Shown one piece after another: positions 8,974-53,531 of a DNA stretch of 64,000 nucleotides. The stretch lies in IMG/VR virus record IMGVR_UViG_3300047322_000252, positions 32,001-96,000 of that record; one strand, 5' to 3'. Under the pieces are notes generated by a model that saw only the letters and a program-made list of their open reading frames with translations, was not told the DNA's origin and ran no database searches. The translations under genes were made by a program, and so were the position numbers. This DNA comes from a virus. Positions within the stretch are counted from its first letter, which is position 1, and every line of letters starts with the position of its first letter.

Positions 8974-9003
8974 GGACCCATTGACATTGACGTAGGAGCA
9001 CAC

Positions 9004-10551
9004 ATGGTCAACAGGGCCGGTTTCATCGTCCAGAACGCCGTCACGGCCGGGGCCAACCTGGACCTGGCTGAGCCTGACGCTCTCGACTTCAACATGCTGG
9101 GCAACATCCGCCACGGTGTGCTTGGTTCGGACCCGAACGCCTGCAAGGTCAGTGTCAATGGATCGAGCTACACGATCACCGTGGCGCCGGGTGTCGCCGT
9201 GGTGGACGGGGCACTCGTGCGGACGGGTGGGACGGTCCCCCTGCCCGGACCCTCCCAGTCACCACGGTTCGATCTGATCACGGTGGATGGGGGCGGGACT
9301 GCCGGTGCCATCGTCGGCACTCCCGACCCGAACCCGGTCTTCCCCGACTACGACGACACGGTGACGGTGCTCGCCGCCATCATGATCCGGCCAGGTGGCA
9401 ACTACCCGCAGGCCGGGGACGTGACCGACAAGCGGCTCATGCTGATGCAGCGGTTCGTGACGGCGGTCAGTGCCGGGTCGCTGCTCCACAACGGCAACCC
9501 GGCCAACCTGGCCCCGCTGTTCGACATTGACTTCAACGGGCGCATGGTGTGGGACGGCGACGGCACGGCGTTGGAGCGCACCAGCACCAAGACCTTGCGG
9601 GTCGGGGACAACCTGGTCGTGGCGGGCACGCTCTCTGCTGCCGCTATCGCAGCGGTCGGGGACCTGAACGTCAGTGGCGACATCATCGCCACCAACTTCC
9701 TCCAGGGCGCTGGTCCCCCTTCGGGCACGGCCACCCTCGGGGACCTCTACAAGAACCTGACTGACGGGTCAATCTGGGCCTACCAGACCACCGGCTGGGT
9801 GCAGCTTTCGACGGTGCCCATCCCTGCCGGTATGACGATGATGGGCTTCATGACCACCGCTCCAGCGGGATGGCTGTTGGTCAACGGCCAGACCATCTCC
9901 AAGGCGGCGTCAGGAGGCCTGTGGGACGCCCGGCCCGACTGGCAGCTTCCTGGTGGCACCCAGATGAAGCTCCCCGACGCCCGGGACTGCTTCTATGGCT
10001 GGGGCGCTCCCGGTGTGAGGTTCGGCAACGTGGCACCCCAGGTGCAGTTGACCGTGGCCAACCTGCCCCCGCACAAGCATCTGGTCAGTCCCACGACGGA
10101 CGCAGGAGGGGCGCACGGCCACACGGTGAGCCAGACCCCGGCTGGGGCGCACAGCCACACCACCGTGCAGCCCAGTGGCGCCCACAACCACTCCATCTAC
10201 GACCCGGGGCACTCGCATCCGCCGCCCCCGGACGCCGACGCCTACGTGACCCGCACCATCGGTGGTGGCCCGAAGCGGCTGCTGGATGGCCCCTGGGACG
10301 TGGGCTTCGATCCGGGTACGGGTGTGAACGTCGATGTGTACCAGCACGGCACCACCGGCATCCAGACCACGACAGCGGGGTCCAACCACGACCACCCCAC
10401 CGACGTTCAGGGCAACCACACCCACGGCTTCGCCATCGATTCCGGGGGCGCAGCGCACTCGCACCCCATCAGCGAGAACACCATCGGCTCTGGGATTCCG
10501 ATCGACATCCGCCCGCCCGCCATGGGCATGTACCTGTTCGTGAAGATCTGA
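9004..10551 (+). CDS. Fibre protein with tail-collar domain and HxH repeats
   Basis: P.GWLL.NGQ...LPDAR...LP.H.H and repeated AH.H motifs. Confidence 0.75.
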   Translation: MVNRAGFIVQNAVTAGANLDLAEPDALDFNMLGNIRHGVLGSDPNACKVSVNGSSYTITVAPGVAVVDGALVRTGGTVPLPGPSQSPRFDLITVDGGGTAGAIVGTPDPNPVFPDYDDTVTVLAAIMIRPGGNYPQAGDVTDKRLMLMQRFVTAVSAGSLLHNGNPANLAPLFDIDFNGRMVWDGDGTALERTSTKTLRVGDNLVVAGTLSAAAIAAVGDLNVSGDIIATNFLQGAGPPSGTATLGDLYKNLTDGSIWAYQTTGWVQLSTVPIPAGMTMMGFMTTAPAGWLLVNGQTISKAASGGLWDARPDWQLPGGTQMKLPDARDCFYGWGAPGVRFGNVAPQVQLTVANLPPHKHLVSPTTDAGGAHGHTVSQTPAGAHSHTTVQPSGAHNHSIYDPGHSHPPPPDADAYVTRTIGGGPKRLLDGPWDVGFDPGTGVNVDVYQHGTTGIQTTTAGSNHDHPTDVQGNHTHGFAIDSGGAAHSHPISENTIGSGIPIDIRPPAMGMYLFVKI

Positions 10552-10697
10552 TGCCCTACCGCAAGCCCGACGAGGGCATCATCCAGCAAGCGGTGGAGCT
10601 TTCCTCCGAGGGGCTGGAGGAGATCCCCTACGCCTCGGAGATCGTGGACAAGGGGCCAGGCGGTCCAGGCCTGGACCCGGAGTGGGAGCCAGCATGA
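10551..10697 (+). CDS. Small hypothetical protein
   Basis: TGATG/ATGA coupling with neighbours (MPYRKPDEG...). Confidence 0.55.
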   Translation: MPYRKPDEGIIQQAVELSSEGLEEIPYASEIVDKGPGGPGLDPEWEPA

Positions 10698-11341
10698 CCG
10701 ACATCGTCGCCCCTGCGGAGTGGTTCGTGCCGCCGTACCCGAAGGCCCTGGTGCCCGACTACTCGGGCTACGCCCCGGGTGCCGTCAGCGGCGCAAGTGG
10801 TGGGACAGGAGCCGCTGACGGCGGGGCATCTTCGCAGGTCCCTACGAGCTACGACCTCTCGTGGGTGGCTGGAGACACCGTCGAGTTCAAGTTCTTCTTC
10901 CCGAACGTGTGCTGGGTGGAGGTTGATCCCGGCTCCACGCAGGCGCTGTGGGAGTACACCACCTGGCGCTCCCAGGTCCGCACGTCACACTATTACTACT
11001 ATGGCTACTGGTGGCCTCCCACTTTCCCGATGGGTGCTCGCATCATGGAGTTCGTCTGCACCGCTGAGTATGTGGAGGACGATCCGGACAAGGGCACTGG
11101 CACCTGGGTCACCCTTCGGGGCGGCACGTCGTGGCCTGGCGACTTCAAGTGGGATCTCCAGTCCGAGGCCCACACCAGCACCCTCGATCCGTACTTCTAC
11201 GAGGCCCACACCTGGTACCAGGGCAACGTCAAGGTGCTGCCCCAATACACCTCACCCACGCTGTACCCGCCGAGCAACTGGCCGGTCTACTCCTTCGACT
11301 CGAACCCCTGGCCGCATCAGGGGCCGTATCTCTACCCGTGA
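10694..11341 (+). CDS. Virion structural protein (hypothetical)
   Basis: GDT...W.SQVR...WDLQ...G.V.V pattern typical of phage BppU-like proteins. Confidence 0.6.
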   Translation: MTDIVAPAEWFVPPYPKALVPDYSGYAPGAVSGASGGTGAADGGASSQVPTSYDLSWVAGDTVEFKFFFPNVCWVEVDPGSTQALWEYTTWRSQVRTSHYYYYGYWWPPTFPMGARIMEFVCTAEYVEDDPDKGTGTWVTLRGGTSWPGDFKWDLQSEAHTSTLDPYFYEAHTWYQGNVKVLPQYTSPTLYPPSNWPVYSFDSNPWPHQGPYLYP

Positions 11342-11350
11342 GGTGAGGAG

Positions 11351-11539
11351 GTGGACATGCAGGTCAGGGTCGATGTCACCGAAGACGAAGGCGTGCGTGT
11401 TACGACAACCTACGGGCCGGTCCTGTTGTCCGTAGTCTTCGACCTGGCCGACGAGGAGGCAGTCATCGACGTCATTCGCCAGGGCTTCGCAGATGCCCGC
11501 AAGCTCCATGAGGAGAAGGTCCATGTGCTCCCCGGCTGA
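11351..11539 (+). CDS. Small hypothetical protein
   Basis: GAGGAG RBS; coding-like composition. Confidence 0.55.
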   Translation: MDMQVRVDVTEDEGVRVTTTYGPVLLSVVFDLADEEAVIDVIRQGFADARKLHEEKVHVLPG

Positions 11540-12326: not shown

Positions 12327-12862
12327 TCGACACCCGCCGAGAGGCCGCTCACATCGCCAGGGAGATGGCTCGTTATCACAACGAGATCGGTGAGGCCGTC
12401 ATCTGGTTCAAGTTCGACACCGAGAACAGCCACTATGACCGGGTCTACAACGAGGGGGGCAAGGCCTGGAGGCGGGGCCTGAGCGTAGCCACGCTGTGGA
12501 TCGACCAGGGCGAGGCTCCGGAGCAGTACCTCCCCGAGGGGCGCCGTCCCTACGTGACGCTGCGCTTCGCCGTGTCGGCGGTGGCCCTCATGGAGTCGGG
12601 CGTCGGCCAGCAAGAGGCCCACGGCCATCGGGTCTGGGACCAGGGCCTGCTCCAGGACTTCTGGATGGACGACCGGAACAACGACGTCGTGTACTACGAC
12701 GGGCGATACTGGGAGGTGTCCAACTTCCAGATCCGGGGCCGCATCCAGGTGGACACCGTGGTCGGGGTGACCTGCACCGAGACGTACCCCGAGGATGAGT
12801 ACACCTTCGACTTCCCGCCCAACACTCGACCTCCGGTGCTCAACCCTCTGAGGGAGGACTGA
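12323..12862 (+). CDS. Putative head-closure/stopper protein
   Basis: Position; D.V.YDGRYWEV pattern. Confidence 0.55.
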   Translation: MIDTRREAAHIAREMARYHNEIGEAVIWFKFDTENSHYDRVYNEGGKAWRRGLSVATLWIDQGEAPEQYLPEGRRPYVTLRFAVSAVALMESGVGQQEAHGHRVWDQGLLQDFWMDDRNNDVVYYDGRYWEVSNFQIRGRIQVDTVVGVTCTETYPEDEYTFDFPPNTRPPVLNPLRED

Positions 12863-13800
12863 TGGCTGCCCCCGGCTCCGCTACCGCAACGGTCTGGCCC
12901 GACTGGGCCAACGGCTTCGACAACTGGCGTGAGCAGGACGCCGAATGGCTGCGCAACCGCATCGTCAGCCCCTTCCCTGATGTCGCAACACGTGACACCA
13001 TCATGAACCCGGTGGCCAAGAGCTTCGGCATGATGTCGATCCTCCAGGCGGGGTCGGTGGCCGGGGCGCCGGACTTCTGGAACGGGGCGGCGTGGGAGTC
13101 CATTCGGTACCCCAACCTGAACGTCACCTCGGACGCCACCAGCGTCACGTTGAAGCGCCAGGGAGCGGGGTCCGGCATCCAGTTGATGAACGACGGCTCC
13201 GTGAACACGGTGAAGAACGTCGTCGGCACAGGTGGCATCGGCTACGTGGGGGACACCACCGGCATCTCCATGAAGATCGGCGCCAAGACGGTCAAGTTGG
13301 CCACCGATGCCACCCAGTTGACCATCGACTCCCCCGTCTCGATCGCTGGGGGACTGACACTGACAGGCGCCCTTAGCGTAAATAGCGTAAATGTGACGGC
13401 GGGGCTGACCGTGGGGGGCACCCTCGGCGCTCAGGCCATCACGGCGACCACGCTCACGGCCAGCGGCCTGGTGGCGGGTGGCAGTGTCAATGGTGGAGAT
13501 GCACAGTTGGCGACGGTGGGCATCTTCGGTGTGCTGCGTCATCGCAGTGGCGGCACCGGGGTGGTGAGCGTGGGGTCGGACTCCACGTTGAAGATCGATG
13601 GGGCGAGCCTCGCCGTCAACCCGCCGACCACTTTCGCTGGCACGATCACGGCCAATGGGGTGACCAACTTCGTGGGGCAGCCCAACTTGGCCATCACAGG
13701 CAAGACGTCGGTCATGGTGGCGGGCATCGTCGCCGTGGCGGGCAACACGCCACCAGGGTCGCTGAACGCCCCTGACGGAACCTTGTACGTCACCTACTAG
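12862..13800 (+). CDS. Virion fibre-like protein
   Basis: G/T/V-rich beta-repeat sequence; C-terminal APDGTLYV. Confidence 0.6.
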   Translation: MAAPGSATATVWPDWANGFDNWREQDAEWLRNRIVSPFPDVATRDTIMNPVAKSFGMMSILQAGSVAGAPDFWNGAAWESIRYPNLNVTSDATSVTLKRQGAGSGIQLMNDGSVNTVKNVVGTGGIGYVGDTTGISMKIGAKTVKLATDATQLTIDSPVSIAGGLTLTGALSVNSVNVTAGLTVGGTLGAQAITATTLTASGLVAGGSVNGGDAQLATVGIFGVLRHRSGGTGVVSVGSDSTLKIDGASLAVNPPTTFAGTITANGVTNFVGQPNLAITGKTSVMVAGIVAVAGNTPPGSLNAPDGTLYVTY

Positions 13801-13808
13801 GAGGACCC

Positions 13809-15966: not shown

Positions 15967-16032
15967 GCTACGCTCCCGGCGTCGGCACCCACGCTGGGTC
16001 CGGCCCACTTGCCCAGAACAGGAGAGCCGCCC

Positions 16033-24694: not shown

Positions 24695-24978
24695 TGATCA
24701 CCGCTGCCTCCCGCTACACCCAGGGCGAGGCCTTGTGGGTCACCACCAAGGACCCTGACGTGGGCCGGGGCAACAAGCTCACGGTGTTCCTCAACACCGT
24801 CACCTACCTCACCAGCCCCTACTCCGTGGCGCTGGTGAAGGAGACGGACGACATGAGCCTGTTCGCTTTCACCGCCTACGCCGACCCTCGGCGGTGGTGG
24901 GTGATCGCTGATGCCAACCCGCAGGTGTTCCACCCTTGGGACGCCCGCCCTGGCCAGTCCGTGCGGGTGCCGTCGTGA
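24694..24978 (+). CDS. LysM/tail-X-like baseplate protein
   Basis: Y.DP.RWW.IADANP...PG..VRVP. Confidence 0.8.
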   Translation: MITAASRYTQGEALWVTTKDPDVGRGNKLTVFLNTVTYLTSPYSVALVKETDDMSLFAFTAYADPRRWWVIADANPQVFHPWDARPGQSVRVPS

Positions 24979-26192
24979 CTACCTCCCCCTCGCTGGTCCA
25001 GCCTGCTCGCAGCCCGACCACCGTCATCGGGGACATCCGGGTGAACGAGCGTTCCATCCTGGTCACTCCCACGCACGGCACGCTCACCCGCAAGGAGGAT
25101 GAGCACGACACCGCCAGCATCTTCGTGGTCACCGGCACTCGTGCCACGGACTTCGATCAGCTACCGAACCAGCGCATCGAGTTCGCCTACGGCACTCCCG
25201 GCAACAAGAGCACCTTCCAGGGTTATGTCAACAGCGTGATGCCGCAGAAGCGGTTGGTGGGTAACCAGACTGTCACCGTGCAGGAGATCTTCTGCTACGG
25301 GGCCTCGATGGTGTTGAAGGGCAACGTCCCCCGCTTCTTCACGTCATTGACATTGACGCAGATGATGCAGCGCATCGTGAGCGAGGCCAACCTGGGCTTC
25401 TCCGACGAGTTCCGCAACGACACGATGGTGTGGCGCTCTCTGGCCCAGACCTCGGAGTCGGACTGGGAGATGTTGCTGGCCATGGCGAACCGCCTGGCTG
25501 CTCGCATCCTCTACGACCAGGGTGTCGTGCGCCTCATCGACTACCGGGACATCGCCTACCGCATGCTCCCGGTGCGCAAGCTCCTGAGCGGGAGCATGGA
25601 CCCGGACTTCTCGGCCTCCGAGACGGGCAACTTCGGGTCGGGCGCCGTGGTCGAGTACGTGCCCATCAGCGTCGGTGTCCAGGACCCGGCCTACCGCACG
25701 CCCACCACCGCCTACCTGGCCGGGAAGTCGGCCGTGGTGCTGACCCCGCCGCTGGCCAGGCTCACGGCTCAGCCCTCGGTCATGAAGAACACCTGGGGGT
25801 CGGCACTGGTGGGCCGCTTCGCCACCGACATGCCTGCGTCATCACAACAAGAGGCCGAGATCATCCAGCAGGGCTTCTACAACCCACCGTGGCCCCAGCA
25901 GGCCGAGGTTCGCATCGAGGGGGACGCCACCGCCTCTCCTGGCACCGTGGTGCAGATCTCCTCGAAGCGGGGGCAAACCATGTCCCCGACCTACGACGGT
26001 CTGTGGTACGTCAGTGGGGTGCAGCACGACATCGGCCTCAACAAGCGCTTCTACACCGTGCTGACCGTGGGTCGGCAGGCTGAGCGGGGCATGAACTGGT
26101 ATCAGTACCGGCCGTTCTGGCTGAGTGACAAGCGTGGCCCGCCCACTCTGCGCTCGTCGGGCGCTGGACAGTGGATCTCGAACTGGAGGTGA
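24975..26192 (+). CDS. Baseplate hub protein (gpD-like)
   Basis: Q..ESDW.L..A, GD...PG..V, G.WYV..V.H. Confidence 0.8.
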   Translation: MTTSPSLVQPARSPTTVIGDIRVNERSILVTPTHGTLTRKEDEHDTASIFVVTGTRATDFDQLPNQRIEFAYGTPGNKSTFQGYVNSVMPQKRLVGNQTVTVQEIFCYGASMVLKGNVPRFFTSLTLTQMMQRIVSEANLGFSDEFRNDTMVWRSLAQTSESDWEMLLAMANRLAARILYDQGVVRLIDYRDIAYRMLPVRKLLSGSMDPDFSASETGNFGSGAVVEYVPISVGVQDPAYRTPTTAYLAGKSAVVLTPPLARLTAQPSVMKNTWGSALVGRFATDMPASSQQEAEIIQQGFYNPPWPQQAEVRIEGDATASPGTVVQISSKRGQTMSPTYDGLWYVSGVQHDIGLNKRFYTVLTVGRQAERGMNWYQYRPFWLSDKRGPPTLRSSGAGQWISNWR

Positions 26193-32462: not shown

Positions 32463-32966
32463 CTACGGACGGTTCTCCAGGATGTACGCCGCCCTGTCCG
32501 AGATGTCAGTCTTGGACAGGGTGGCAACTTCCTCAGCCTGATCCAGGCTGGTGTTCATGGAGCGCTTCAACTTGCGCAGCGACTTCCCGATGGAGGTCTT
32601 GCCGGGCACCTTCTGCGTGAGGTTGTCGATGTCCTCGAAGGTGACAGCCAGCCGGGTGAGGATGTCGCTGACGGCCTTCTTCACGTTCGGCTCTCCGGTG
32701 CCGGGACCCGTAGGCCCCCAGGCGTCGGCCAGCTTGTACAGGAAGCCCTCGTCACTCACCGGACGAGGGATGACCACGTTGCGGTCCTCCATCGCCAGGC
32801 GACCGGGCAGCGAGTAGCGAGCCTGGCGGAAGTTGTGGGCCGGTTCCTGGATGGCCGTGCAGATCTCATCGAGCGTGGCCGGGCCGTTCATGTCCAGGAA
32901 CGTGATGACGTTGTTGATCAGGACGTAGTGGACGGAGTCACGAGGGTCCATCTTCCTGCGGGTCAT
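32463..32966 (-). CDS. Hypothetical protein, possible winged-helix DNA-binding N-terminus
   Basis: ATG coupled to upstream TGA; I..FL..NGPATLDEI..AI pattern. Confidence 0.6.
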   Translation of the reverse strand: MTRRKMDPRDSVHYVLINNVITFLDMNGPATLDEICTAIQEPAHNFRQARYSLPGRLAMEDRNVVIPRPVSDEGFLYKLADAWGPTGPGTGEPNVKKAVSDILTRLAVTFEDIDNLTQKVPGKTSIGKSLRKLKRSMNTSLDQAEEVATLSKTDISDRAAYILENRP

Positions 32967-33909: not shown

Positions 33910-33985
33910 CAAGAAGCCCCACATTGACTTCTTGATGGGCCGTATGGCATGTATGCAACAGAACGAGCATTGACACTGACATGAA

Positions 33986-34020
33986 GAGAGGCCCCCCGTA
34001 CCAACACCGGGGGGCCTCTC
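33986..34020. repeat. 13-bp perfect inverted repeat
   Basis: GAGAGGCCCCCCG / CGGGGGGCCTCTC. Confidence 0.85.
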
Positions 34021-34162: not shown

Positions 34163-34264
34163 ATGGAAACCATGGAGTGCCCCATCTGCCACGTCCAGCG
34201 CCCTGAGGATGTACACCTCGACTGGTGTACCTACGAGGGTCCCGAGCCTGCTGACCAGGACTAG
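34163..34264 (+). CDS. Possible tiny Cys/His peptide
   Basis: METMECPICHVQRPEDVHLDWCTYEGPEPADQD*. Confidence 0.35.
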   Translation: METMECPICHVQRPEDVHLDWCTYEGPEPADQD

Positions 34265-34280
34265 CGCCCGTCAATGTCAA

Positions 34281-34308
34281 TGGGACGGAGTCCTAAGACT
34301 CCGTCCCA
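34281..34308. repeat. 12-bp perfect inverted repeat
   Basis: TGGGACGGAGTC-CTAA-GACTCCGTCCCA. Confidence 0.85.
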
Positions 34309-38232: not shown

Positions 38233-39788
38233 CCGTTGAGCCGAGGCCTTATCAAGCGGAAGCCCTCGCACGCATGGTGGAGCGGGGGAACCAGCTACTC
38301 GCCCTCACGATGGGAGCGGGCAAGACCATCACGGCCCTGGCCGCAGTTGAACTACTGGCAGCGCAAGGCCTTGTCCGCACCGGGTTCGTCCTGTGCCCCA
38401 ACTCGATCAAGTTTCAATGGCTGGATGAAATCCGCCGCCGAACAGGAGCGCCGTGCCAGGTCATCGATGGCACACGTGAGCACCGCCTCTTCCAGTACAA
38501 ACATGCCCGTAGGTACCGCTACAACATCAGCAACTACGACACGCTTCGGAACGACCTGGAACTACTGACCAACTGGGTGCCGGTCCCGGACTTCCTGATC
38601 GCTGACGAGGCCACCCAGATCAAGAGCATGCGGGCGCAGCGCTCGAAGGTGTTGAAGCGTCTGGCCAAAGAGGTGCCGTACCGCTTCGCCCTCACCGGCC
38701 AGCCCATCGAGAACCGGCCCGAGGAACTGTTCTCCATCATGGAGTTTGTTGACAGAACAGTGTTGGGTCCGTTCATCAAGTTCGACCGCACCTTCATCAG
38801 CAGGGACCACTTCGGGCGCCCGGTGCGCTACCGCAACATGGAGACGCTGCGGGACTCGATGGCTCCGGTGATGTACCGCAAGAGCCGCAAGGACATCGAG
38901 GACTTCCTGCCCACCATCATCCCGATGGAGATGCCGATCGAGCTATCCCCTGCGGTGCGGGCGGTCTACGACTTCATGGCACACGACTGCCTGGCTGCCA
39001 TAGAACATGCCATAGAGGCTGGTGGGATGGGTAGCTTCGACGTGGCCAGCATCTACGGCCGCTCCGACCACGAGAACGCCAAGGGCAAGGCGATGGGCGA
39101 GATCATGGCCCGGCTCACCTGCATGCGCATGCTCTGCGACCACCCGGCCCTGCTGCTCCAGTCGGCCCAGGAGTATGACGACCCGGAGTCCGGTCGGGGA
39201 TCGAAGTATGCAGCGTGGTTGGCTCACGAGGGCTTCCTGGACGAGCTAGCTGACGACGGCCACCAGAAGATGCTCGCCGCCTGCGACCTGATCGAGGAGA
39301 TCGTGGGGGAGTCGGACACCAACAAGGTGGTCCTCTTCGCCTTCTTCAAGCCCATGCTGCGCATGATTCGGGCTGTCCTGGGCAAGCGGAAGATCGCCAC
39401 CGTCATGCTCACCGGGGACCTGAACGCCCAGCAGCGGCGCCAGTCGTTGGACATGTTCCAGGGGCCGTGCCAGGTCCTGCTCTCCTCGGACGCCGGGCAG
39501 TACGGCATCGACCTGCCCCACTGCAACTACCTGATCAGCTACGACCTGCCGTGGTCAGCCGGGGCCTTCGCCCAGCGGGTGGCCCGCATCGACCGCACTT
39601 CCAGCCTGTTCCCTCACGTCACCGTTGTCACCATGATGTGTAGGGGCACGGTGGAGCAGCGCCAGTTCGACATGTTGACTCAGAAGCGCACCGTGGCCGA
39701 GACGTGGATCGATGGCATGCACATCGACGGCAAGGGCGGATTGACATTGACACTCGACACCTTGCGGGGGTTCCTCCAGGCTGCCTAG
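38202..39788 (+). CDS. SNF2-family helicase
   Basis: PYQ, MGAGKT, IADEA, LTGQPIEN, G.DL, YDLPW, RIDR. Confidence 0.9.
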   Translation: MEADTASWPLTVEPRPYQAEALARMVERGNQLLALTMGAGKTITALAAVELLAAQGLVRTGFVLCPNSIKFQWLDEIRRRTGAPCQVIDGTREHRLFQYKHARRYRYNISNYDTLRNDLELLTNWVPVPDFLIADEATQIKSMRAQRSKVLKRLAKEVPYRFALTGQPIENRPEELFSIMEFVDRTVLGPFIKFDRTFISRDHFGRPVRYRNMETLRDSMAPVMYRKSRKDIEDFLPTIIPMEMPIELSPAVRAVYDFMAHDCLAAIEHAIEAGGMGSFDVASIYGRSDHENAKGKAMGEIMARLTCMRMLCDHPALLLQSAQEYDDPESGRGSKYAAWLAHEGFLDELADDGHQKMLAACDLIEEIVGESDTNKVVLFAFFKPMLRMIRAVLGKRKIATVMLTGDLNAQQRRQSLDMFQGPCQVLLSSDAGQYGIDLPHCNYLISYDLPWSAGAFAQRVARIDRTSSLFPHVTVVTMMCRGTVEQRQFDMLTQKRTVAETWIDGMHIDGKGGLTLTLDTLRGFLQAA

Positions 39789-40264: not shown

Positions 40265-43200
40265 CTAGGAGGTTTCACACGCCTGGCCGTCGCCGTCGTG
40301 GTCGAGGCCACCCGGGTTGGGAATGGCGGGGCTGCGGTAGTAGTCCCACCACGCCTGGGCGGCGTTGTGGTTCTGCACGCTGCCGAGGGCACCAGGGAAG
40401 TCGGCGCACTTGGCCACGGTGTTCGGGTCAGGACCAGACGGGGGTGTTGTGACAGCGTCACCGAACCACCCACTCAGGTCCACGATCAGGTCGGTGGCGG
40501 CGAAGCTCTTGAAGCACACCTGACCCGTCTCCGGAACCTTGACCACCGTCATGTTGGCGGCGCTCACCTGGTGGGCCGTGTAGTTGACCGATGACGTCTT
40601 GGTGGTCGTCCCGCAGGGGTACACCTGGACGTAGCCATTGGCCGAGGGGTCAGCCACCGTGATGTTGAGCACCGCCGCTGCGATGCCCCGGGGCAGGCCC
40701 AGGTCCACGGCAAGCTCCTGGCCGGGAGCCAGGCGGCTGAACCCCGGTGTGCTGCGGGTGTCGAACAGCCGGGACGGAGCCACGGCGGTGAGGGTGGTGC
40801 CATCAGCACCCACGAACCAGCCCGCCAGGTCTGCGATCACCTGCGTGTTGGCGAAGCTCCGGAAGCAGAGCGTGCCTCCCGGTGCCTCCACGGCGGCGAA
40901 GTTGGCGATGGTCTGGCCCGCTGCGTAGTTCACGTTGGACGTGTTGGCCTCGGCGTCGCAGGGGTAGGCCCTGAGGTAGCCATCAGCCTGGGGCTGGTCC
41001 ACCGTGAGGTTCAGCATCATGGCCTCGGCCGTAGCCGGTGCCTCAGCGAGGTTGAACACCACCTGGTGTCCTGCCTGGAAGGCGTTGGGTCGGGAGTCGA
41101 GTACCCGGGTCGGGTCCACCGGCTGGTAGCCCAGCGCTCCGTCCCTATCGAAGTAGCCCGACAGGTCGATCACCACGTCGGTGGTCTGTTGTGACAAGAA
41201 GCAGACCCACCCGTCAGCGGGGATCGTGACAATCGCCACGTTGCTCACCGTCTGCCCGGTGCTGTAGTTCACCGTGCTGTTCTCCGGGACCGTGCCGCAG
41301 GGGTACACCCGCAGGAAGCCGGTGTCCTGAGGCTGCGTCACCGTGACCGTGAGCATGGCGGCGCTGTGCCCGCCGAGGTTGATGGCGTTCTGCTCACCGG
41401 CCTGCACCGGCTGGGCGTCCGTCCTGGTGTCCACCAGGCGCTCAGCGGGCTGCTGAGTGAACCGGAGGCCCTGGATCTGCGGCGGGGTCACCGGAGGCGC
41501 CACAGGAGGCACCACAGGGGGCGCCACCGGGGGCACCGTCTGGTCCAGGAGGTAGGTCACCGACTGCTGGACGACAGCGCCTCGGGAGTCGGTGGCCTTG
41601 ACCACGATCTCCAGGTAGTAGTCCGGCGTGTCGTCCCCATGGCTGGGGAAGACGAAGTCCGGGCTGTCCTGGAAGGCGCCGGGATGCACGTGGCACTCGC
41701 CAGGTGAGGGGCAGTGGTGGATCACCGGCTGGTACTGGACGCTGACGGCGTCGCCATCGGGGTCCCGCACTGTTGCGTCAACATGGAGGGCGTCACCGAC
41801 GTGGAAGAGGCCCTGGGGCGGGACCACGTTCAGGACGGGGGCGTTGTTGCCCACGTTCACGGTCACCGTGGCCGAGGCCGTGGCGCCCAGGTCGTCGCTG
41901 ACCGTCAGGATGGCCCGGTAGGAGCCGGGCGACGTGTAGGTGTGGCTCACCGTGGCCGGGGGCTGGTTGAGCGCCGACAGGGGCAGTGAGCCGTCCCCGA
42001 AGTCCATGGTCCACGTGCGGATGGTGCCGTCCGTGTCGCCAGCGGAGGGAGAGAAGGTCACGCCCAACGGGGACAGGCCGATCAGCGGTGTGCCGACCAG
42101 GCGAGCGGTGGGTACGGCGTTGTCGCCACCCAGGTAGTGGATGCGGGTGATGTGACCGGCCCCGGTGCCAGGCGCACCGATGTCGGACACCATGACGTCG
42201 CCGCCCAGGCCCGCTTGGATGCTGGTGATGGACCCCCACTGGCCGAGCGCACCGAAGGGGTGCTGGTGGTCGCCCACGAACAGATCGCCTCGGGCGTAGT
42301 CACCGAACCAGTAGCCCTGCTGGGCAGCCGGGTAGTTGCTTGTTACGACAACACCACCGACTGCGGCCGACTGAGCGGCCCGACCCACTTCAACGTGGGG
42401 CCAGGTCAGCAGAGGATCGGTGAAGGTGGCGTTGCACTCGGGGCTGTTGTCCAGCGTGGTGACCGTGGTGCCTTCCAGGCAGGGCCAGCCCAGGTTGTTG
42501 CCCTTGTTCACCACGTCCTGCTCTTCGGTGGTGTTCCAGCCCACGTCCCCGACCCGCAGGGTCGAGCCGTCGAGGGAGAAGCGGAAGGGGTTGCGGAGGC
42601 CGTAGGCCCACACCCGCTGCGCCCAATACTCGTCCCGGATGGGGTAGTCGTTCTGGCCGTTGATCTTGGCGGCGATGAAGGGGTTGTCAGCGACGGGCGT
42701 GCCGTCCTGGTTGATGTGGAAGATCTTGCCCCGAGGCGAGAACACGTCCTGGGCCGACAGGGACGACGGGTCCATGGCGCCGCAGTAGGACGAGCCGTCA
42801 CCGTTGCCGACGTACAGGGTGCCATCCGGTGCTGTGATAACAGTGCCCACGGTGTGGCTGTCGGTGCAGACGGCCCCGTTGGTGGGCGACCACGACGGCA
42901 GGTTGTCCATGAGCACGACCTCGCTGGTGAAGTCGATGCCGGTGGGAGCGGTGGCCGGACCCAGGAGGGTCATCCGGCTCAACCGACCAGTCGGTAGGCC
43001 ACCATCGGGGATGCAGGCCTGGTCATCGGAGGCCAGGGTGGTGGACTGGCAGTAGTCCCACAGCATGTTCACGTGCTTGGTGGTGGCGTAGTCACCGGCC
43101 AGGGAGATGCCGAGCAGGCCTCGGTCGCCCTGGTAGTAGGCGGGCATGTTGCCGATGATGGTGGCGGTGGCGTCCGAGGCGTCCATGCCGTCGCCTGTTA

Positions 43201-43423
43201 CGTCAACACGTGTCACCCGCCCCGACTTGCCGGTGGCCAGCATGGTCTGAGTGCCGGGTATGACCACGAAGTTGGTCAGGTCATACTCGAACATTCCAGC
43301 GTCATACTGGACGAGCTTGAAGCCGGTGGGTACGGACGGGGCCGCACTCGCAGGGGAGGGCGCTAGAGGTATTGCCGCCAACCCCATTGCGAGCAGGGCG
43401 AGTGTGATGACTCTCCTGATCAT
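40265..43423 (-). CDS. Secreted PQQ-dependent sugar (glucose/sorbosone) dehydrogenase-like protein with PKD, three surface repeats and Excalibur domain
   Basis: Signal peptide (..ASA); RGLLG, GTLYVGNGD, YGLRNPFR, GDVG, NLGWP; PKD DFGDG..HTY..PG.Y; 3x RL.DTR...SNVNY...DLSG; DHDGDGQACE. Confidence 0.85.
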   Translation of the reverse strand: MIRRVITLALLAMGLAAIPLAPSPASAAPSVPTGFKLVQYDAGMFEYDLTNFVVIPGTQTMLATGKSGRVTRVDVTGDGMDASDATATIIGNMPAYYQGDRGLLGISLAGDYATTKHVNMLWDYCQSTTLASDDQACIPDGGLPTGRLSRMTLLGPATAPTGIDFTSEVVLMDNLPSWSPTNGAVCTDSHTVGTVITAPDGTLYVGNGDGSSYCGAMDPSSLSAQDVFSPRGKIFHINQDGTPVADNPFIAAKINGQNDYPIRDEYWAQRVWAYGLRNPFRFSLDGSTLRVGDVGWNTTEEQDVVNKGNNLGWPCLEGTTVTTLDNSPECNATFTDPLLTWPHVEVGRAAQSAAVGGVVVTSNYPAAQQGYWFGDYARGDLFVGDHQHPFGALGQWGSITSIQAGLGGDVMVSDIGAPGTGAGHITRIHYLGGDNAVPTARLVGTPLIGLSPLGVTFSPSAGDTDGTIRTWTMDFGDGSLPLSALNQPPATVSHTYTSPGSYRAILTVSDDLGATASATVTVNVGNNAPVLNVVPPQGLFHVGDALHVDATVRDPDGDAVSVQYQPVIHHCPSPGECHVHPGAFQDSPDFVFPSHGDDTPDYYLEIVVKATDSRGAVVQQSVTYLLDQTVPPVAPPVVPPVAPPVTPPQIQGLRFTQQPAERLVDTRTDAQPVQAGEQNAINLGGHSAAMLTVTVTQPQDTGFLRVYPCGTVPENSTVNYSTGQTVSNVAIVTIPADGWVCFLSQQTTDVVIDLSGYFDRDGALGYQPVDPTRVLDSRPNAFQAGHQVVFNLAEAPATAEAMMLNLTVDQPQADGYLRAYPCDAEANTSNVNYAAGQTIANFAAVEAPGGTLCFRSFANTQVIADLAGWFVGADGTTLTAVAPSRLFDTRSTPGFSRLAPGQELAVDLGLPRGIAAAVLNITVADPSANGYVQVYPCGTTTKTSSVNYTAHQVSAANMTVVKVPETGQVCFKSFAATDLIVDLSGWFGDAVTTPPSGPDPNTVAKCADFPGALGSVQNHNAAQAWWDYYRSPAIPNPGGLDHDGDGQACETS

Positions 43424-45461: not shown

Positions 45462-45507
45462 AGGACCCCCGGCCTTCCTTCCCTCCCAGGAAGTGGCCGG
45501 GGGTCCT
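45462..45507 (+). terminator. GC-rich hairpin between SSB and PolA
   Basis: AGGACCCCCGGCC...GGCCGGGGGTCCT. Confidence 0.7.
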
Positions 45508-45542
45508 CGGCGTGTGAGGGGCCGGGAGCTACAGTCCCGTCA

Positions 45543-47537
45543 ATGGCAATGGTGGTCGAGCCGTATCTCATCCGCACCCGCCACGACTTGAAGACGGCGG
45601 TCGCCCGCTGCTCCCAGTACGACGCCTTCGTGATCGACGTCGAGACGGACGGCGTCTTCACCAAGACCAACTGGGTCACCTGGGTCGGCCTCGCCACCCA
45701 TGGTCAGTGCTTCCTCATTCCCATCGGGCAGCGTCACGGGCGGCTCATCAAGCGAGCGCACTCGAAGATGGAGCTACCGCCCGACCATCTACGGGCCGTG
45801 CTCCAGAACGGCACGCTGTCCATGCGCAAGGTGAAGGTCAACTACCCGGCCGTGTTCGGGGACCCCGGCGAGCAACTGGACCCTGCTGTCGTCTTCGAGG
45901 AGCTACAGCCTCTGCTGTTCAGTGACCAGATCAAGATCGGCCACAACGTCAAGTTCGACCTGATGACGGTGTCCAAGTACTACGGCGGCGAGCTACCACC
46001 AGGGCCGTACGAGGACACGATGATCATGCAGCACGTCGTGGACGAGAACCGGCGCCTCTACGACTTGAAGGAGTGCGTACTAGACATGCTCCGGGTGGTA
46101 GGTCTGGATCAGCGCCGGACCTATTACCCCAAGCTGGGCAAGACCATCATGAACGAGTCTCTGATGGACGTGGCCCGCTACCTGTCCAAGGACACCTATC
46201 TCTGCTGGCTGTTGCGACATCACCTGCGGGAGCGCTTGAAGAAGCAGGGGCTGGAGTCGGTGTTCCGGCTGGAGATGGACGTGTACCCGGCTGTGATGCG
46301 CATGGAGATGAACGGCGCCGCCATTGACACTGACGAGATGCAGGCGGTGGGCGCCGACCTGCGCCAGCAGATCACCCTCATCGAGAACCGGGCCTGGCAG
46401 ATCGCTGACGGACCGTTCCAGATGACGGATGTGAACAAGAAGCGGGAGCTTCTGTTCATGCCCAAGGACAAGGTCAAGGGTGGGCAGGGCTTGAAGCCGC
46501 TCACCTGGACGGCCAAGACCGGCGTGCCCCAGTTGAACCAGTTCACCCTGGAGCACTACAGCGAGACGAACGAGCTAGCCCGGCTGTTCAGTGAGTGGAG
46601 CGCCGCCGCCAAGCTGCACTCCACCTATATCGTGGGCCTGCGGGACCGGATGCACGAGCGGGACGGTCAACATTACGTTTACACATCATTCACACAACAG
46701 GGCACGGTGACAGGGCGTCTGAGCAGCCGTGACCCCAACGTCCAGAACATCCCCACCGACTCCTCGATCCGGGGGCTATTCATCGCCCCGGACGGGCAGA
46801 TCCTCATCGTGGCTGACTACGACCAGATCGAGTTGCGGGTGATCGCCCACTTCTCGGGGGACCCGGTCATGCAGGGCATCTTCCAGCGGGGTGAGGACAT
46901 CCACGCTGGTACAGCGGCTGCGGTGCTGGGCAAGGAGATCGAGGAAGTCACCCCCATCGAGCGCTCCAAGATCGGCAAGCCCCTCAACTTCGCCGTGGGC
47001 TACGGCGCAGGCTGGCAGAAGGTCGCCGCCATGTCCGGTACCAGCGAGCGCCAGGCCAAGCTCTTCGTGCGTCGGTACTACGAGCGCTTCGCCATGATCC
47101 AGCCCTGGAAGCGCCGGGTCCTGCTGGAGGCGTGGAAGCGGGGGGACCCCAAGAACCCCTACGGGCAGCCCCCATTTGTGACAACACTTCTGGGACGTAA
47201 GCGCAGGTTGCCGGAGCTTTACAGCGGCGACAACGCCTTGAAGTCGAGGGCTGAGCGGCAGGCCATCAACCACCGGGTGCAGGGCACAGCGGCCGAGATC
47301 ATGAAGATCGCCATCATCCGGGTGGACCGGGCCTTCCAGGACACGCCGTACCAGATGCTGATGACTGTTCATGACGAACTGCTGTCGGCCGTCCCCGAAG
47401 CCGAGGCTGAGCAGGCGAAAGCGGCCGTTGTGACAGCGATGTCCGGGATATGCTTCGCCAACGGAGATCCGATTCTCAACGTCCCACTGGTGGTGTCATG
47501 CGGAACAGCGAAGAGGTGGAGCGAGGCCAAGGGGTAA
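45543..47537 (+). CDS. polA: DNA polymerase I (family A; 3'-5' exonuclease + polymerase)
   Basis: DVET, GHN.KFD, TGRLSS..PN.QNIP, DY.QIELR, K.LNFA..YG, VHDEL. Confidence 0.95.
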   Translation: MAMVVEPYLIRTRHDLKTAVARCSQYDAFVIDVETDGVFTKTNWVTWVGLATHGQCFLIPIGQRHGRLIKRAHSKMELPPDHLRAVLQNGTLSMRKVKVNYPAVFGDPGEQLDPAVVFEELQPLLFSDQIKIGHNVKFDLMTVSKYYGGELPPGPYEDTMIMQHVVDENRRLYDLKECVLDMLRVVGLDQRRTYYPKLGKTIMNESLMDVARYLSKDTYLCWLLRHHLRERLKKQGLESVFRLEMDVYPAVMRMEMNGAAIDTDEMQAVGADLRQQITLIENRAWQIADGPFQMTDVNKKRELLFMPKDKVKGGQGLKPLTWTAKTGVPQLNQFTLEHYSETNELARLFSEWSAAAKLHSTYIVGLRDRMHERDGQHYVYTSFTQQGTVTGRLSSRDPNVQNIPTDSSIRGLFIAPDGQILIVADYDQIELRVIAHFSGDPVMQGIFQRGEDIHAGTAAAVLGKEIEEVTPIERSKIGKPLNFAVGYGAGWQKVAAMSGTSERQAKLFVRRYYERFAMIQPWKRRVLLEAWKRGDPKNPYGQPPFVTTLLGRKRRLPELYSGDNALKSRAERQAINHRVQGTAAEIMKIAIIRVDRAFQDTPYQMLMTVHDELLSAVPEAEAEQAKAAVVTAMSGICFANGDPILNVPLVVSCGTAKRWSEAKG

Positions 47538-48473: not shown

Positions 48474-48506
48474 GTACGGAATCCTACGAGGAGTACCGTA
48501 GGCCGG

Positions 48507-49577
48507 ATGCCTGACACATCTCTCGACACGGTGCTGACGAGGGTCAACAAGAACCTCGGGGAAGGGACCCTCATCCGGGGGTCCGACTTGAAGAACCACC
48601 AGATCCCCCGCATCACGTCCGGGTCGTTGGCCCTGGACATGGCGCTGGGCGGCGGCTGGGCCATGAACTGTTGGTCCGAGCTTCTGGGTGAACCGTCCCA
48701 TGGGAAAACGGTTCTCGCTCTCAAAACGATCGCCGCCAACCAACGTATCCACAAGCGTTTCCACACCCTGTGGATAGCCGCCGAGCCGTTCGTACCCGCC
48801 TGGGCCGAGACGTGCGAGGTCGATCTCGACCGGGTGATGATCGCTGACACCCGGGTGATGGAGGACGCCTACCAGATCGTCTGCGAGATGATCGACGGGC
48901 GCCTCGTGGACGCCGTCGTCATCGACTCACTCTCTTCGCTCACGCCCACCGAGGAGGACGAGAAGGCCATGGACGACTGGCAGGTGGGCCTCGGCGCTCG
49001 CCTGACGGGCAAGTTCATGCGCAAGTCCAGCGTGGCCCAGCGCCGCAGCCTCACCGAGCCGGACCGCAACTGCTTCGGGCTGATCATCTCGCAGTGGCGG
49101 GAGAAGATCGGCGTGATGTACGGCGACAACCGAGTCAGCCCCAACGGGCGGGCCAAGGAGTTCTTCTTCATGACCCGGGTGGAGGTGCGCCGGGATGACT
49201 GGCTGGGGCCGGACAAGCACCGGGTGGGCCAGACGTTCAAGGCCCGCATCATCAAGAACAAGACGGCGCCGCCCCAGCGCTCAGCCGTGTTCGACTTCTA
49301 CTGGGAGGACGACGGCAACCACCGGGCCGGGCGTTATGACATCGGGAAGATGCTGGCCAACATCGGCATGGACCTGGGTGTCGTGGAGTTGAAGGGGGCC
49401 TGGTACTACTTTGCTGGGCAGAAGTGGAACGGCAAGGAGAAGTTCTGGGAGGCAGTCGATCAGGATGAGTTGTTACAACGAGGTCTGGCCAAGGCCATCC
49501 GTGGCCTCGCCCTGCCGGGCATTGACATTGACGACCCCGCCCCGGCCAAGGCCAGGCGGGCGTTGAAGCGTGCCTAA
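48507..49577 (+). CDS. recA: RecA-like recombinase
   Basis: SGSLALD.ALGGG, GEPSHGKT, VIDSL, Q.REKIG..YG, KNK. Confidence 0.95.
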   Translation: MPDTSLDTVLTRVNKNLGEGTLIRGSDLKNHQIPRITSGSLALDMALGGGWAMNCWSELLGEPSHGKTVLALKTIAANQRIHKRFHTLWIAAEPFVPAWAETCEVDLDRVMIADTRVMEDAYQIVCEMIDGRLVDAVVIDSLSSLTPTEEDEKAMDDWQVGLGARLTGKFMRKSSVAQRRSLTEPDRNCFGLIISQWREKIGVMYGDNRVSPNGRAKEFFFMTRVEVRRDDWLGPDKHRVGQTFKARIIKNKTAPPQRSAVFDFYWEDDGNHRAGRYDIGKMLANIGMDLGVVELKGAWYYFAGQKWNGKEKFWEAVDQDELLQRGLAKAIRGLALPGIDIDDPAPAKARRALKRA

Positions 49578-50861: not shown

Positions 50862-51261
50862 GCCGATACCGGCTGTACCCATCGACCTGGCTGAGCTAGC
50901 GGACCCGCACCTGATGCGGCTCTTCTCGTTGTACGTGGCGTGGAACGACTACCTGGACGTGCTGCGGGTGGAGGCCGAGGTGGAGGAGGGCAACGCCGAG
51001 GCTGACTTGAAGCTGTTGGAGGCCACGTCCATGGCAGGGTGGGGACCCAAGGACAAGGTGACCTTCGCCAGGGCCGAGCGGGACACCGATCCCGAGATCG
51101 TCATTGCTCGCCAGCGGGTGACGACGGCGTGGTCCCGGCGCAAGGTGCTCATGGTGCTGTGCGGGAACATGGAGCGGGACGCAAGCCTGCTATCGAGGGA
51201 GTTGTCACGCCGTATCGGACGAGCACCTGTGGAGGGGCGCTATGCAGGATGGAACACCTGA
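50764..51261 (+). CDS. Hypothetical helical protein (possible recombination mediator)
   Basis: Coiled coil ending LSRELSRR, in recA operon. Confidence 0.6.
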   Translation: MNNTKTIRRRSQRPSSEPQRMFAGVLLPSEPPEPIPAVPIDLAELADPHLMRLFSLYVAWNDYLDVLRVEAEVEEGNAEADLKLLEATSMAGWGPKDKVTFARAERDTDPEIVIARQRVTTAWSRRKVLMVLCGNMERDASLLSRELSRRIGRAPVEGRYAGWNT

Positions 51262-51568
51262 GGACGACGTCGTTGCGATCAGGCTGGATGCGGAGGCGTC
51301 AGCCGACAGCCAGGTGGTGCCCGAGGACGACGAGGCCGACCTGCTGCGCATCCAGCGGCTCTACAGCACGACCGACGCCATGGTGTGGGCCACCGAGTGG
51401 TGCATCGTGGCCCGCAAGCTGGAGTACCTGGGCAAGCCGTTGATCGATGAGGGCTGGATGGTGGGGTGGTTCGCCAACGCCATCGAGATCGGACGAGAGG
51501 CCGGGTATCGCAAGGCCATGGAGTCCATTGACACTGACGATGGTCGGGGACGGGAGTTCACACGATGA
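51242..51568 (+). CDS. Hypothetical protein
   Basis: DA.VWA...M.GWFANAI motif seen in phage proteins. Confidence 0.65.
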   Translation: MQDGTPEDDVVAIRLDAEASADSQVVPEDDEADLLRIQRLYSTTDAMVWATEWCIVARKLEYLGKPLIDEGWMVGWFANAIEIGREAGYRKAMESIDTDDGRGREFTR

Positions 51569-52238: not shown

Positions 52239-52639
52239 TGGTCAATCGATCGAAGAAGACGGGAACCGAGCACGAGTCCAAGAGCGTCATCTGGTTGAAG
52301 CGCAACGGGTGGCCCTACGCCCGGCGCATCACCATGAAGGGGCAGCGAGACGAGGGAGACATCGACCTGGGCAACGGCATCCCGGTGATGATCGAGGCCA
52401 AGAACGAGAAGACGATCAGCCTGGCTCAGTACATCAAGGAGATGGACGCTCAGATCGTCAACGCCGACGCCGAGACGGGCTTCGTCATCATCAAGCGTAG
52501 GGGAACCACGGACGTGGGGAAGTACTACGCTCTGACAACTGTCGAACATGCGAACGACCTGCTACGGAGAGTGTACAAGGTTCGGAAACGTCGGCTGATC
52601 CGTACGACCCATTCCGATCCGTCCTCCAACGGCGCATGA
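52238..52639 (+). CDS. Holliday junction resolvase-like nuclease
   Basis: K..G..HE...D.GDI...IEAKN. Confidence 0.8.
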   Translation: MVNRSKKTGTEHESKSVIWLKRNGWPYARRITMKGQRDEGDIDLGNGIPVMIEAKNEKTISLAQYIKEMDAQIVNADAETGFVIIKRRGTTDVGKYYALTTVEHANDLLRRVYKVRKRRLIRTTHSDPSSNGA

Positions 52640-52646
52640 TGGAGGC

Positions 52647-52937
52647 ATGGCAAGGAGCAGCTACGAGATCCTGGATAGGTACGAACTTCCGTGCCCAGCG
52701 TGCCAGGGCATCGGTTGCGTGAACTGCCGTAATGGTTCCGTCCCGGTGTACACCCTGGTCAGCGGCCGATCGAAGGTGCGTTGCAACGCTTTCGGCCACG
52801 TCATGTTGGGCAAGACCGAACGACCCACGAACGCAAGGGACCTACCCCAGGTCGCCTGGTGCAGCCGCTGCCAATGGCAGCAGGTTCACACGGACGTCCC
52901 CGAGGCTTATGATCTGGAGGCCGAACACACCGCCTAG
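52647..52937 (+). CDS. Zn-binding hypothetical protein
   Basis: CPACQG.GC..C, CSRC. Confidence 0.65.
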   Translation: MARSSYEILDRYELPCPACQGIGCVNCRNGSVPVYTLVSGRSKVRCNAFGHVMLGKTERPTNARDLPQVAWCSRCQWQQVHTDVPEAYDLEAEHTA

Positions 52938-52946
52938 GAGGTCGCC

Positions 52947-53531
52947 ATGGACCTGACCACCATCACCGTTCCCGAGGACGTAGCCGAAGAGCGAGTCCGA
53001 GAGTACGAGGTGGCGGTCAGGGAACGGCGAGACGCCGAGGACCAAGCCATCCTCTCGGCGTACAAGGCGGCGGCTCGTGGCCTCCCGATCATCATGCTCC
53101 CGCAGGTGATCAAGGCCGGGGGCTTCTTCTCCGATGACCACCCGGTGTGCCCCCGACTCCCGAAGCTCGCCATCGCCCGAGCCGACGCCCGCACCTGCTG
53201 GGTGGACAGCCGCTCGAACGAGATCGTCTACCGGGACAGCAACCGGGTGCAGAACCGGGGCGCTCTCGTCGCCCCGCACTCGGTGTCAGTGTCAGTGCCC
53301 GGGAATCGCTGGTGGCGCTCCGCTCAGACCATCGTGCCCCACGTCCCGCCCCGGCACCGGCCCAAGCGAGGCCGCATCGGCAGCTTCCACGTCCTGTGGG
53401 AGGTCGAGGAGTGGACCAACGTGGCGCCCATCGACCCGGCGCTGCTGCGCCACATCCGGGGCGACCTGTGGAGCGTGCTCGCTGTGTGGGACCTGACGGA
53501 CCTGGAGCGGGCTGTACTCTCGGCCCGATGA
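52947..53531 (+). CDS. Conserved phage hypothetical protein
   Basis: AGGAGG RBS; PKLAIARAD, VP..PP, LWEVE.W, DP.LL, WDLT..E. Confidence 0.75.
   Translation: MDLTTITVPEDVAEERVREYEVAVRERRDAEDQAILSAYKAAARGLPIIMLPQVIKAGGFFSDDHPVCPRLPKLAIARADARTCWVDSRSNEIVYRDSNRVQNRGALVAPHSVSVSVPGNRWWRSAQTIVPHVPPRHRPKRGRIGSFHVLWEVEEWTNVAPIDPALLRHIRGDLWSVLAVWDLTDLERAVLSAR

Follow-up and report, generated by a model that had tools for sequence, protein, structure and literature searches.

To our knowledge, dispersed short repeats are present in several groups of actinophages, and among these only the stoperator has a worked-out mechanism, which serves prophage silencing. Here we analyse a dispersed asymmetric motif, CATTGACAYTGAC, in a stretch of 64,000 nucleotides (the window) that comprises bases 32001-96000 of the 118,220-bp virus record IMGVR_UViG_3300047322_000252. 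The record, called G000 below, is rated complete and has terminal repeats.

Operators built from contiguous direct repeats are exemplified by omega, a ribbon-helix-helix (RHH) protein of inc18 plasmids, which is a global repressor and needs two or more adjoining 7-bp heptads. The following outline of phage systems is drawn from excerpts of the cited papers. The stoperators of cluster A phages such as L5 are asymmetric sites in short intergenic spaces and promoter regions, with orientation tied to transcription (PMC9283540), and a system of stoperator type also exists in relatives of Streptomyces phage R4 (PMC10276819). Cluster O phages (Corndog) carry more than 30 invariant copies of a 17-bp repeat, whose function is presumed to be protein binding (PMC4351075). 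In cluster K, the start-associated sequences (SAS) are found 3-7 bp upstream of start codons; they contain a Shine-Dalgarno core and are confined to the non-structural half of the genome (PMC3203893). In addition, the lytic phage D29 has a MerR-like repressor, Gp36, whose binding sites are direct repeats (PMC12266134).

The motif described here is a word under selection at the level of DNA: it is non-random, sharply bounded and positionally conserved, it belongs to one clade and it has no promoter context. As an explanation we tentatively favour, at a little less than an even chance, a clade-specific dispersed operator of one putative phage DNA-binding protein, which would act on transcription at the boundaries of transcription units.

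Results

Copies of the motif and their architecture

The window contains nine exact copies of CATTGACAYTGAC, and 100 dinucleotide-preserving shuffles contained none. When up to two mismatches were allowed, 17 matches were found, whereas the shuffles averaged 2.58 and reached at most 9. Throughout G000 there are 26 exact copies (17 on the + strand and 9 on the - strand) and 30 copies of the looser CAYTGACAYTGAC, with none for the backwards control pattern; among the 10-, 11- and 12-mers of the genome, the most strongly over-represented also come from the motif. A copy number beyond chance, as a sequence-only reading of the window had claimed, is thus borne out. The nine exact and four near copies of that reading were all recovered, each of the latter with one mismatch, but eight of the 13, and not nine, lie on the + strand. 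These copies, with the open reading frames (ORFs) and hairpins that adjoin them, are as follows.

8979-8991, + strand: exact copy CATTGACATTGAC at a gene junction, between the stop codon of ORF 8401-8973 (5 nt upstream) and the ATG of ORF 9004-10551 (12 nt downstream)
9004-10551: ORF, tail-fibre/collar-like
9148-9160, - strand: exact copy, antisense within ORF 9004-10551, facing the 8979 copy at 156 nt
13480-13492, - strand: one-mismatch copy CATTGACACTGCC, antisense within ORF 12862-13800 and perhaps a decayed site or a chance match
25345-25357, + strand: exact copy inside ORF 24975-26192, where it encodes LTLT through the rare codons TTG and ACA; the protein is poorly conserved in this stretch
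29912-29924, + strand: exact copy inside ORF 29653-30885, encoding LTLT
33968-33980, + strand: exact copy in a 730-bp divergent intergenic region, ending 5 nt before a hairpin with a 13-bp stem
33986-34020: that hairpin, GC-rich, 13-bp stem, about -29 kcal/mol, directly 3' of the 33968 copy
about 34165-34264, + strand: small ORF of ~33 codons with a CxxC...C pattern, between the two inverted copies and two hairpins of the control region
34270-34282, - strand: exact copy in inverse orientation to the one at 33968; it follows the stop codon of the small Cys-rich ORF by 5 nt and abuts a hairpin
34281-34308: that hairpin, 12-bp stem, about -23 kcal/mol
39739-39751, + strand: one-mismatch copy GATTGACATTGAC at a gene junction; the SNF2-type helicase gene 38274-39788 has its stop codon 37 nt further on, and whether the copy is functional is uncertain
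45539-45551, - strand: one-mismatch copy CATTGCCATTGAC close to where the polymerase gene starts; likewise of uncertain function
46322-46334, + strand: exact copy in the DNA polymerase I gene, encoding IDTD with the rare codons ATT and ACT
49520-49532, + strand: exact copy within the final 5% of the UvsX/RecA-like gene; the overlapping resolvase gene starts 37 nt further on
51526-51538, + strand: exact copy in the last 13% of ORF 51242-51568, with the next start codon 26 nt on
53285-53297, - strand: CACTGACACTGAC, the standard form in the relative G006, antisense inside ORF 52947-53531

As had been noticed before, the 8979 copy precedes the ribosome-binding site of gene 9004, which lies between motif and ATG, and the control region holds two opposite-facing copies (33968 and 34270). 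At the junction of the 8979 copy, the relative G001 is without any spacer.

The element consists of S, two tandem CAYTGA hexamers, C and R, with a fixed length of 14-15 bp. In an alignment of 60 sites from three genomes, information content is high from the S one base 5' of the motif through the R one base 3' of it (A in 41 and G in 17 of the 60), and the variable positions within are Y, Y and R. Flanking bases in this alignment carried only background information, out to 43 nt upstream and 60 nt downstream, and a third hexamer was present at none of 71 sites. The motif is a direct repeat of CAYTGA, without dyad symmetry.

The copies of G000 contain TTGACA, the consensus of a -35 box, followed by TTGACR or CTGACR, and could be seen as -35 boxes of ordinary internal host-type promoters. 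A -10 hexamer (TANNNT) was found 16-19 nt after either hexamer at one of the 71 sites, however, with about 0.7 expected at ~0.001 per position, and there is no information downstream. Moreover, the sister phage G006 has CTGACA CTGACR at 26 of 26 sites, and recognisable early promoters of G000 differ in build (a palindrome, then TAnACT). This explanation is largely refuted here and retains next to no chance; the earlier reading had named it among the outcomes that would undo a roadblock role, and as a general account of the sites it is ruled against. A promoter of RecA-NDp/PafBC type on the reverse strand was rejected because the flanks carry no information; it has no -10 partner.

Placement at gene ends and use of rare codons

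Genes were called with a simple home-made caller, which gave 183 genes (~90% coding; 184 in a re-run with a slightly different training set). Outside genes lie 15 of the 30 copies in G000 versus 10.9% expected (p about 1e-7), an enrichment of about 5-fold between genes, and 15 of the 26 copies in G006 versus 14% expected (p about 3e-7). A typical intergenic copy is 5-50 nt past a stop codon, and 5 of the 15 intragenic copies of G000 occupy the last quarter of their host gene.

Inside genes, the motif is written against codon preference. All seven ID[TI]D and all five LTLT peptides of the predicted G000 proteome are encoded by the motif or a near-motif, with codons that are rare in this genome: ATT makes up 5% of Ile, ACT 7% of Thr, TTG 12% of Leu and ACA 8% of Thr codons. 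In the PolA gene of the motif-free relative G004, IDTD is spelled ATC GAT ACT GAC, and the four codons differ from those of G000 only synonymously; the other intragenic copies lie in variable protein segments or in an 8-residue insertion. Because of these rare codons, synonymous differences and variable segments, we conclude that the peptides exist because of the DNA word and not the reverse.

Strong intergenic hairpins have a copy within 40 nt in 5 of 19 cases, four of these within 8 nt and both hairpins of the control region among them. Coupling to terminators as a general rule was rejected, as a copy lies near only 6 of 38 strong hairpins (5 of the 19 intergenic ones). Another strong hairpin (window 8000-8029; 13-bp stem, about -29 kcal/mol) stands directly 3' of the major capsid gene and is likely an attenuator or terminator that sets capsid mRNA levels.

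A self-contained asymmetric element that is co-oriented with genes and enriched upstream of them might also be a complete phage-specific promoter, to which a putative phage factor would redirect host RNA polymerase, with a start at the purine of position 14. The 3' C-R resembles the usual pyrimidine-purine start dinucleotide, and an ATG abuts the motif at G000 24339 and 65968 and at G008 7295, from which leaderless mRNAs would follow. However, three ATG-abutting cases among 71 sites are close to our estimate of what base composition yields. Strong terminator hairpins follow four copies by no more than 8 nt, in an order that is kept in relatives; other copies are mid-gene or antisense; no copy stands at the head of the leftward operon (which starts at genome position 26448) or before the terminase gene; and the genes that follow copies do not fall into one functional or temporal class. 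In addition, neither a phage RNA polymerase nor a sigma factor was found among the 183 predicted proteins, which were all compared with PHROGs and 140 of them with Pfam, the scope of every family statement below. A 1056-aa orphan considered as the polymerase was rejected, having no PDB match and only an atlas lead to a VWA/CobT-type protein. A dedicated promoter is therefore quite improbable.

Orientation, facing pairs and non-coding RNA

Relative to transcription, 19 copies in G000 are co-oriented and 6 anti-oriented, with 5 ambiguous (p = 0.007); in G006 the numbers are 17, 7 and 2 (p = 0.03). The bias, at ~3:1, is real but not strict. The comparison of orientation with transcription that the sequence-only reading had proposed thus shows a bias, but two anti-oriented sites are conserved: G000 29641 corresponds to G006 22204, and G000 98525 to G006 66211/66228. 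Motif polarity switches with each gene block.

Copies facing each other occur twice in the window (8979/9148 and 33968/34270), and inverted pairs in relatives are spaced by 4, 8, 14 or 26 nt. Those 4, 14 or 8 nt apart (G006:C1:66211-66240 and 70538-70577, L233; L234:3909-3942) form palindromes with 13-bp arms, which would fold as hairpins in RNA as well.

The excess on the sense strand (19:6 and 17:7) is also what a motif acting in the transcript would give, as a site of binding or cleavage by an RNA-binding protein, nuclease or complementary RNA that sets processing, stability or translation of the next gene. Many copies have a start codon 0-40 nt downstream or are followed closely by a 3' hairpin, and in G008 two genes are joined by a motif that contains a stop codon and is followed at once by an ATG. 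The Y, Y and R variability could be tolerated by a fixed pairing partner through G-U pairs. Against this stand the anti-oriented copies kept in position between G000 and G006, the roughly one quarter of copies that are antisense, and the distance to the next start codon, which ranges over 0-178 nt, with several copies having no downstream gene at all. A scan with Rfam gave no family at the motif and no match beyond two tRNAs, neither of which is near a copy, and no partner RNA was found. We judge an RNA-level role to be distinctly unlikely. The two tRNA genes, Pro(GGG) and Ala(GGC), are located just upstream of the terminase region (L010:14337-14506, + strand).

Distribution and conservation among relatives

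Homologous contigs, numbered G001-G004 and G006-G008, were compared with the source phage G000. Copy counts are 30 in G000, 26 in G006, 7 in G002, 6 in G008, 2 in G007 and 0 in both G003 and G004. All 26 copies of G006 (76 kb; capsid 74% identical) are CACTGACACTGAC, that is CTGACA-CTGACR, and lineages have their own preference for T or C at motif position 3. G006 and the 54.6-kb G001 are one phage, as judged from an exact 60-base match and matching site spacing. G008 is an 18.7-kb contig with a terminase 81% identical; G002, with a capsid 69% identical, and G007 are both fragments. The motif-free G003 and G004 are near-complete, with capsids ~62-64% identical. Their own over-represented words were examined as analogous motifs and discarded, being fibre/collagen-like coding repeats or promoter-like palindromes.

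Twenty-two G000 sites could be mapped onto G006 through nearby orthologues (anchoring proteins 40-85% identical), and for 7 of these 22, G006 has a copy on the same strand no more than 60 nt from the mapped position; less than one would be expected by chance, as estimated from G006 site density. Two further sites share a junction with G006 by inspection. The order of motif and then terminator is kept in G006 after the SNF2 gene, the DpdA-like gene and gene 180/181. A role at mosaic boundaries or in recombination was dismissed, since 1 of 22 sites lies within 25 nt of the end of a blastn block versus G006 and 2.2 are expected.

Many evenly scattered polar copies gained by point mutation also recall Chi or KOPS, and the motif may be considered a DNA signal outside transcription, for replication, recombination, nicking, packaging or modification (Chi-like, T5-type nick, primase or DpdA target). 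The genome encodes UvsX-like and RusA-like proteins, a RecB-like exonuclease, Ku, a primase and a DpdA-like enzyme, and the reverse strand of the motif carries GTGTC, which we take to be the T7-type primase site. However, polarity flips per gene block and not once or twice along the genome, and neither the 5-fold enrichment between genes and at gene ends nor the conservation of junctions would be expected. DpdA, primase and recombination genes are also present in the motif-free G003 and G004, and the predicted proteins included no homing or nicking endonuclease. Such a signal is, in our estimate, highly improbable.

Among cultured phages, capsid and polymerase place BRock and GiJojo, both of Streptomyces, nearest to G000, with identities of about 50% and 33% (~50% for the capsid of BRock-type phages), and these have near-matches to the motif at chance level only. 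A megablast search of 20 kb against deposited phages gave no match. The 24 runs listed for the phage all consist of DNA contigs from soil or rhizosphere, with no RNA run among them. Since close relatives carry copies and more distant kin, BRock and GiJojo carry none, the element is an innovation of a single small clade of uncultivated phages from soil and rhizosphere. A scan of IMG/VR with one 14-mer, from which G007 and G008 were obtained, gave mostly single chance matches among the matches listed. Contigs from four runs showed no difference inside copies when compared with the left 20 kb, a comparison without power, because the contigs are short and near-identical, and with joints that look spurious. 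The motif was not found in print, neither among the matches listed in literature searches by sequence strings nor in the stoperator papers.

Candidate binding proteins

Several products of G000 are candidate binders. Three are small RHH proteins (L010:8603-8767, - strand; L009:11740-12054, + strand; L009:16191-16391, + strand; L009 is the left arm of G000). A fourth candidate is a basic Cys/His-rich protein (L010:8778-9137, - strand), which we read by eye, without confirmation by a tool, as a putative zinc finger followed by an AT-hook-like GRP stretch. The cluster L010:8603-9448, which encodes RHH, basic Cys/His-rich and zinc-ribbon-like proteins, is present in G000, G006 and G008 and absent from G003 and G004.

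A further candidate is the ArsR-type winged-helix protein of L012:16924-17535 (+ strand), the sole helix-turn-helix (HTH) protein of ~200 aa. Its model (mean pLDDT 69) combines an ArsR winged helix with an SH3/eIF5A-like barrel, and no cluster A-type repressor was among the Foldseek matches listed. A conserved motif copy lies ~150-230 nt upstream of the gene in both G000 and G006. Scans of viral sequences and both metagenome sets with this protein gave no further kin.

The binders suggested by the sequence-only reading fared less well. The product of 44185, taken there as MerR-like, has no DNA-binding family match in PHROGs or Pfam, and has homologues in the motif-free G003 and G004. For the products of 32463-33853 there is likewise no match to a DNA-binding family, and only a lead to DUF6192.

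Gene content and neighbouring elements

G000 has a G+C content of 64.8% and a terminal repeat of 127 bp, both measured. Its structural genes include those for terminase, portal, capsid, tail sheath, tube and baseplate, and its replication and recombination genes encode a DnaB-like helicase, primase, PolA, two SNF2-type helicases, a UvsX-like recombinase, two resolvases and an exonuclease. Ku, a DpdA-like transglycosylase, an Acb2/Tad1-like protein, three small RHH proteins and one ArsR-type winged-helix protein were further assigned. No integrase, partition ATPase, immunity repressor, sigma factor or RNA polymerase was found, which agrees with the earlier remark that no integrase or classic repressor is visible. 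G000 is the genome of a contractile-tail phage, which looks virulent; no lysogeny genes were found.

The Ku homologue (Pfam Ku, E = 4e-13; L011:18521-19312, + strand) adjoins the 1056-aa orphan. The DpdA-like gene (L011:11095-12423, + strand), whose 443-aa product matches a queuine tRNA-ribosyltransferase PHROG (E = 4e-30), hints at DNA modification with 7-deazaguanine; the first TGA of a motif copy serves as the stop codon of this gene. A 71-aa protein (L009:16391-16603, + strand) matches the Acb2/Tad1 hairpin domain (Pfam PF24729, E = 6e-21) and is likely a sponge for nucleotides used in defence signalling. A 1009-aa gene in the replication module, but on the other strand (window 40265-43294, - strand), encodes a glucose/sorbosone dehydrogenase-type propeller and PKD domains, and has no homologue in any relative examined.

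The recognisable early promoters are located in the left arm, outside the window. Their modules (L009:1113-13554, for example L009:4475-4487 and 7068-7080) consist of the palindrome TGTTCTGACAACA or variants of it (palindrome A), then TAnACT after 6-7 nt, and are each preceded by a short element of the type GNCCGAAWGNCC, which is often a small hairpin. Palindrome A looks like an operator inside early promoters. Its half-sites are also found in the window, for example at 6609-6617 (GTCACAACA); motif copies are often, but not regularly, close to half-sites. The 9-mer GTSASAACA has 35 copies, about half of them intergenic. In addition, a CCGAA(T) element adjoins the motif in varied arrangement (L009:3685-3698 and L010:13047-13075) and stands directly before copies in G007 and G008.

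Discussion

A protein-binding DNA site is preferred over a promoter, an RNA signal or a replication/recombination signal because the word is bounded and polar, is under selection as nucleotides, concentrates at unit boundaries, is partly independent of orientation and occurs in inverted pairs. According to this operator model, one phage-encoded sequence-specific protein would bind the dispersed copies. The bound protein would act on host RNA polymerase that passes or arrives, and would block it, pause it or help to terminate read-through between units; where a copy lies in a promoter region, it would repress. We infer an effect on elongation or termination, and thus on read-through and the separation of units, because copies are located at gene ends and before terminators, and because stoperators act in this way (PMC9283540). 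The network would provide stoperator-like insulation or shut-off, and a role in timing or insulation during lytic growth is proposed because no lysogeny genes were found.

Several observations weigh against this operator model. Half of the sites are intragenic and some are mid-gene (PolA and two tail genes), where a roadblock would cut essential transcripts unless binding were timed. There is no lysogeny module, in the family searches described above, that would give genome-wide silencing a purpose. With a period of 6 bp, the two hexamers would face different sides of the helix, and we know of no documented binder with such geometry. The presence/absence pattern of the candidate proteins is common to many other small genes. 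Only five records bear the motif, four of them fragments, and G001 and G006 are one phage; moreover, the intergenic and orientation counts and the proteome-wide peptide and codon counts carry some error from the crude gene caller. Finally, the orientation bias is moderate, unlike that of L5, where reversal of a site abolishes repression according to the excerpted account (PMC9283540).

In the excerpts consulted, cluster A genomes have more than 20 asymmetric sites of 13-14 bp genome-wide (26 in TipsytheTRex), compared with 26 exact and 30 relaxed copies in 118 kb here, and intergenic enrichment and a bias with the direction of transcription are common to both, if only in part here. There are also differences. 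In G000 no homologue of the two-domain monomeric repressor (N-terminal HTH plus stoperator domain) and no integrase or partition genes were found; orientation is ~3:1 here and near-absolute there; half of the copies here are intragenic; and the element is a tandem hexamer repeat in a 118-kb virulent-looking contractile-tail phage. The motif contains TTGACA/TGTCAA, as does the L5 stoperator. By analogy, the element may work as cluster A stoperators do, but the type of repressor and the temperate life style are not those of cluster A, and orientation is only weakly constrained. Hence one part of the sequence-only reading stands, namely a dispersed system that is non-random, asymmetric, apart from palindrome A, enriched between genes and biased with transcription; the other part, membership in the stoperator family, is not supported, given that no such repressor, integrase or partition genes were found and that orientation, at 19:6 and 17:7, is not near-absolute.

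Like the motif, the repeats of cluster O are dispersed in phages that are not obviously temperate, have a third to half of their copies in coding regions and are mostly not linked to promoters, as far as the consulted parts of the report go (PMC4351075). In the same parts, the repeat TGTTCGGNNNCCGAACA is given as a palindrome without meaningful orientation, whereas the motif here is a polar direct repeat. The CCGAA(T) element that adjoins some copies loosely recalls a half-site of that repeat by eye. We also take Corndog to encode Ku, which in G000 was found by Pfam.

The SAS of cluster K and the motif are both 13-bp asymmetric elements in single orientation at gene junctions, sometimes with the upstream stop codon (PMC3203893, in excerpt). 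Here, however, the next start codon is up to 178 nt away, AGGAG is absent, and copies are located in all modules and before terminators. With omega the system has in common contiguous direct repeats (two 6-bp units here) and the presence of RHH proteins, of which Pfam finds three in G000. The unit differs, being 6 bp and always 2.3 units per site, and omega sites are clustered at few promoters and not dispersed. The direct repeats of D29 Gp36, as described in the excerpt, are GC-rich, and differ in this from the motif.

A more specific proposal is that a lineage of virulent, jumbo-sized actinophages evolved a roadblock or insulator network of its own, with ~30 polar sites, acquired through point mutations that reached even into essential genes, and a small non-HTH reader (RHH or zinc/AT-hook) that would time the shut-off and separation of units, independently of lysogeny and of the cluster A fold. 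This we regard as unlikely, but worth stating.

The motif represents a different word and a different architecture in a phage without lysogeny genes, with signs of selection and with turnover between sister phages. The codon evidence gives a clean case of a regulatory word that overrides codon preference inside genes. If the binder is found, the system would show how one protein with many sites can partition or time transcription in a lytic phage, and it could offer a compact orientation-dependent control part for high-GC hosts.

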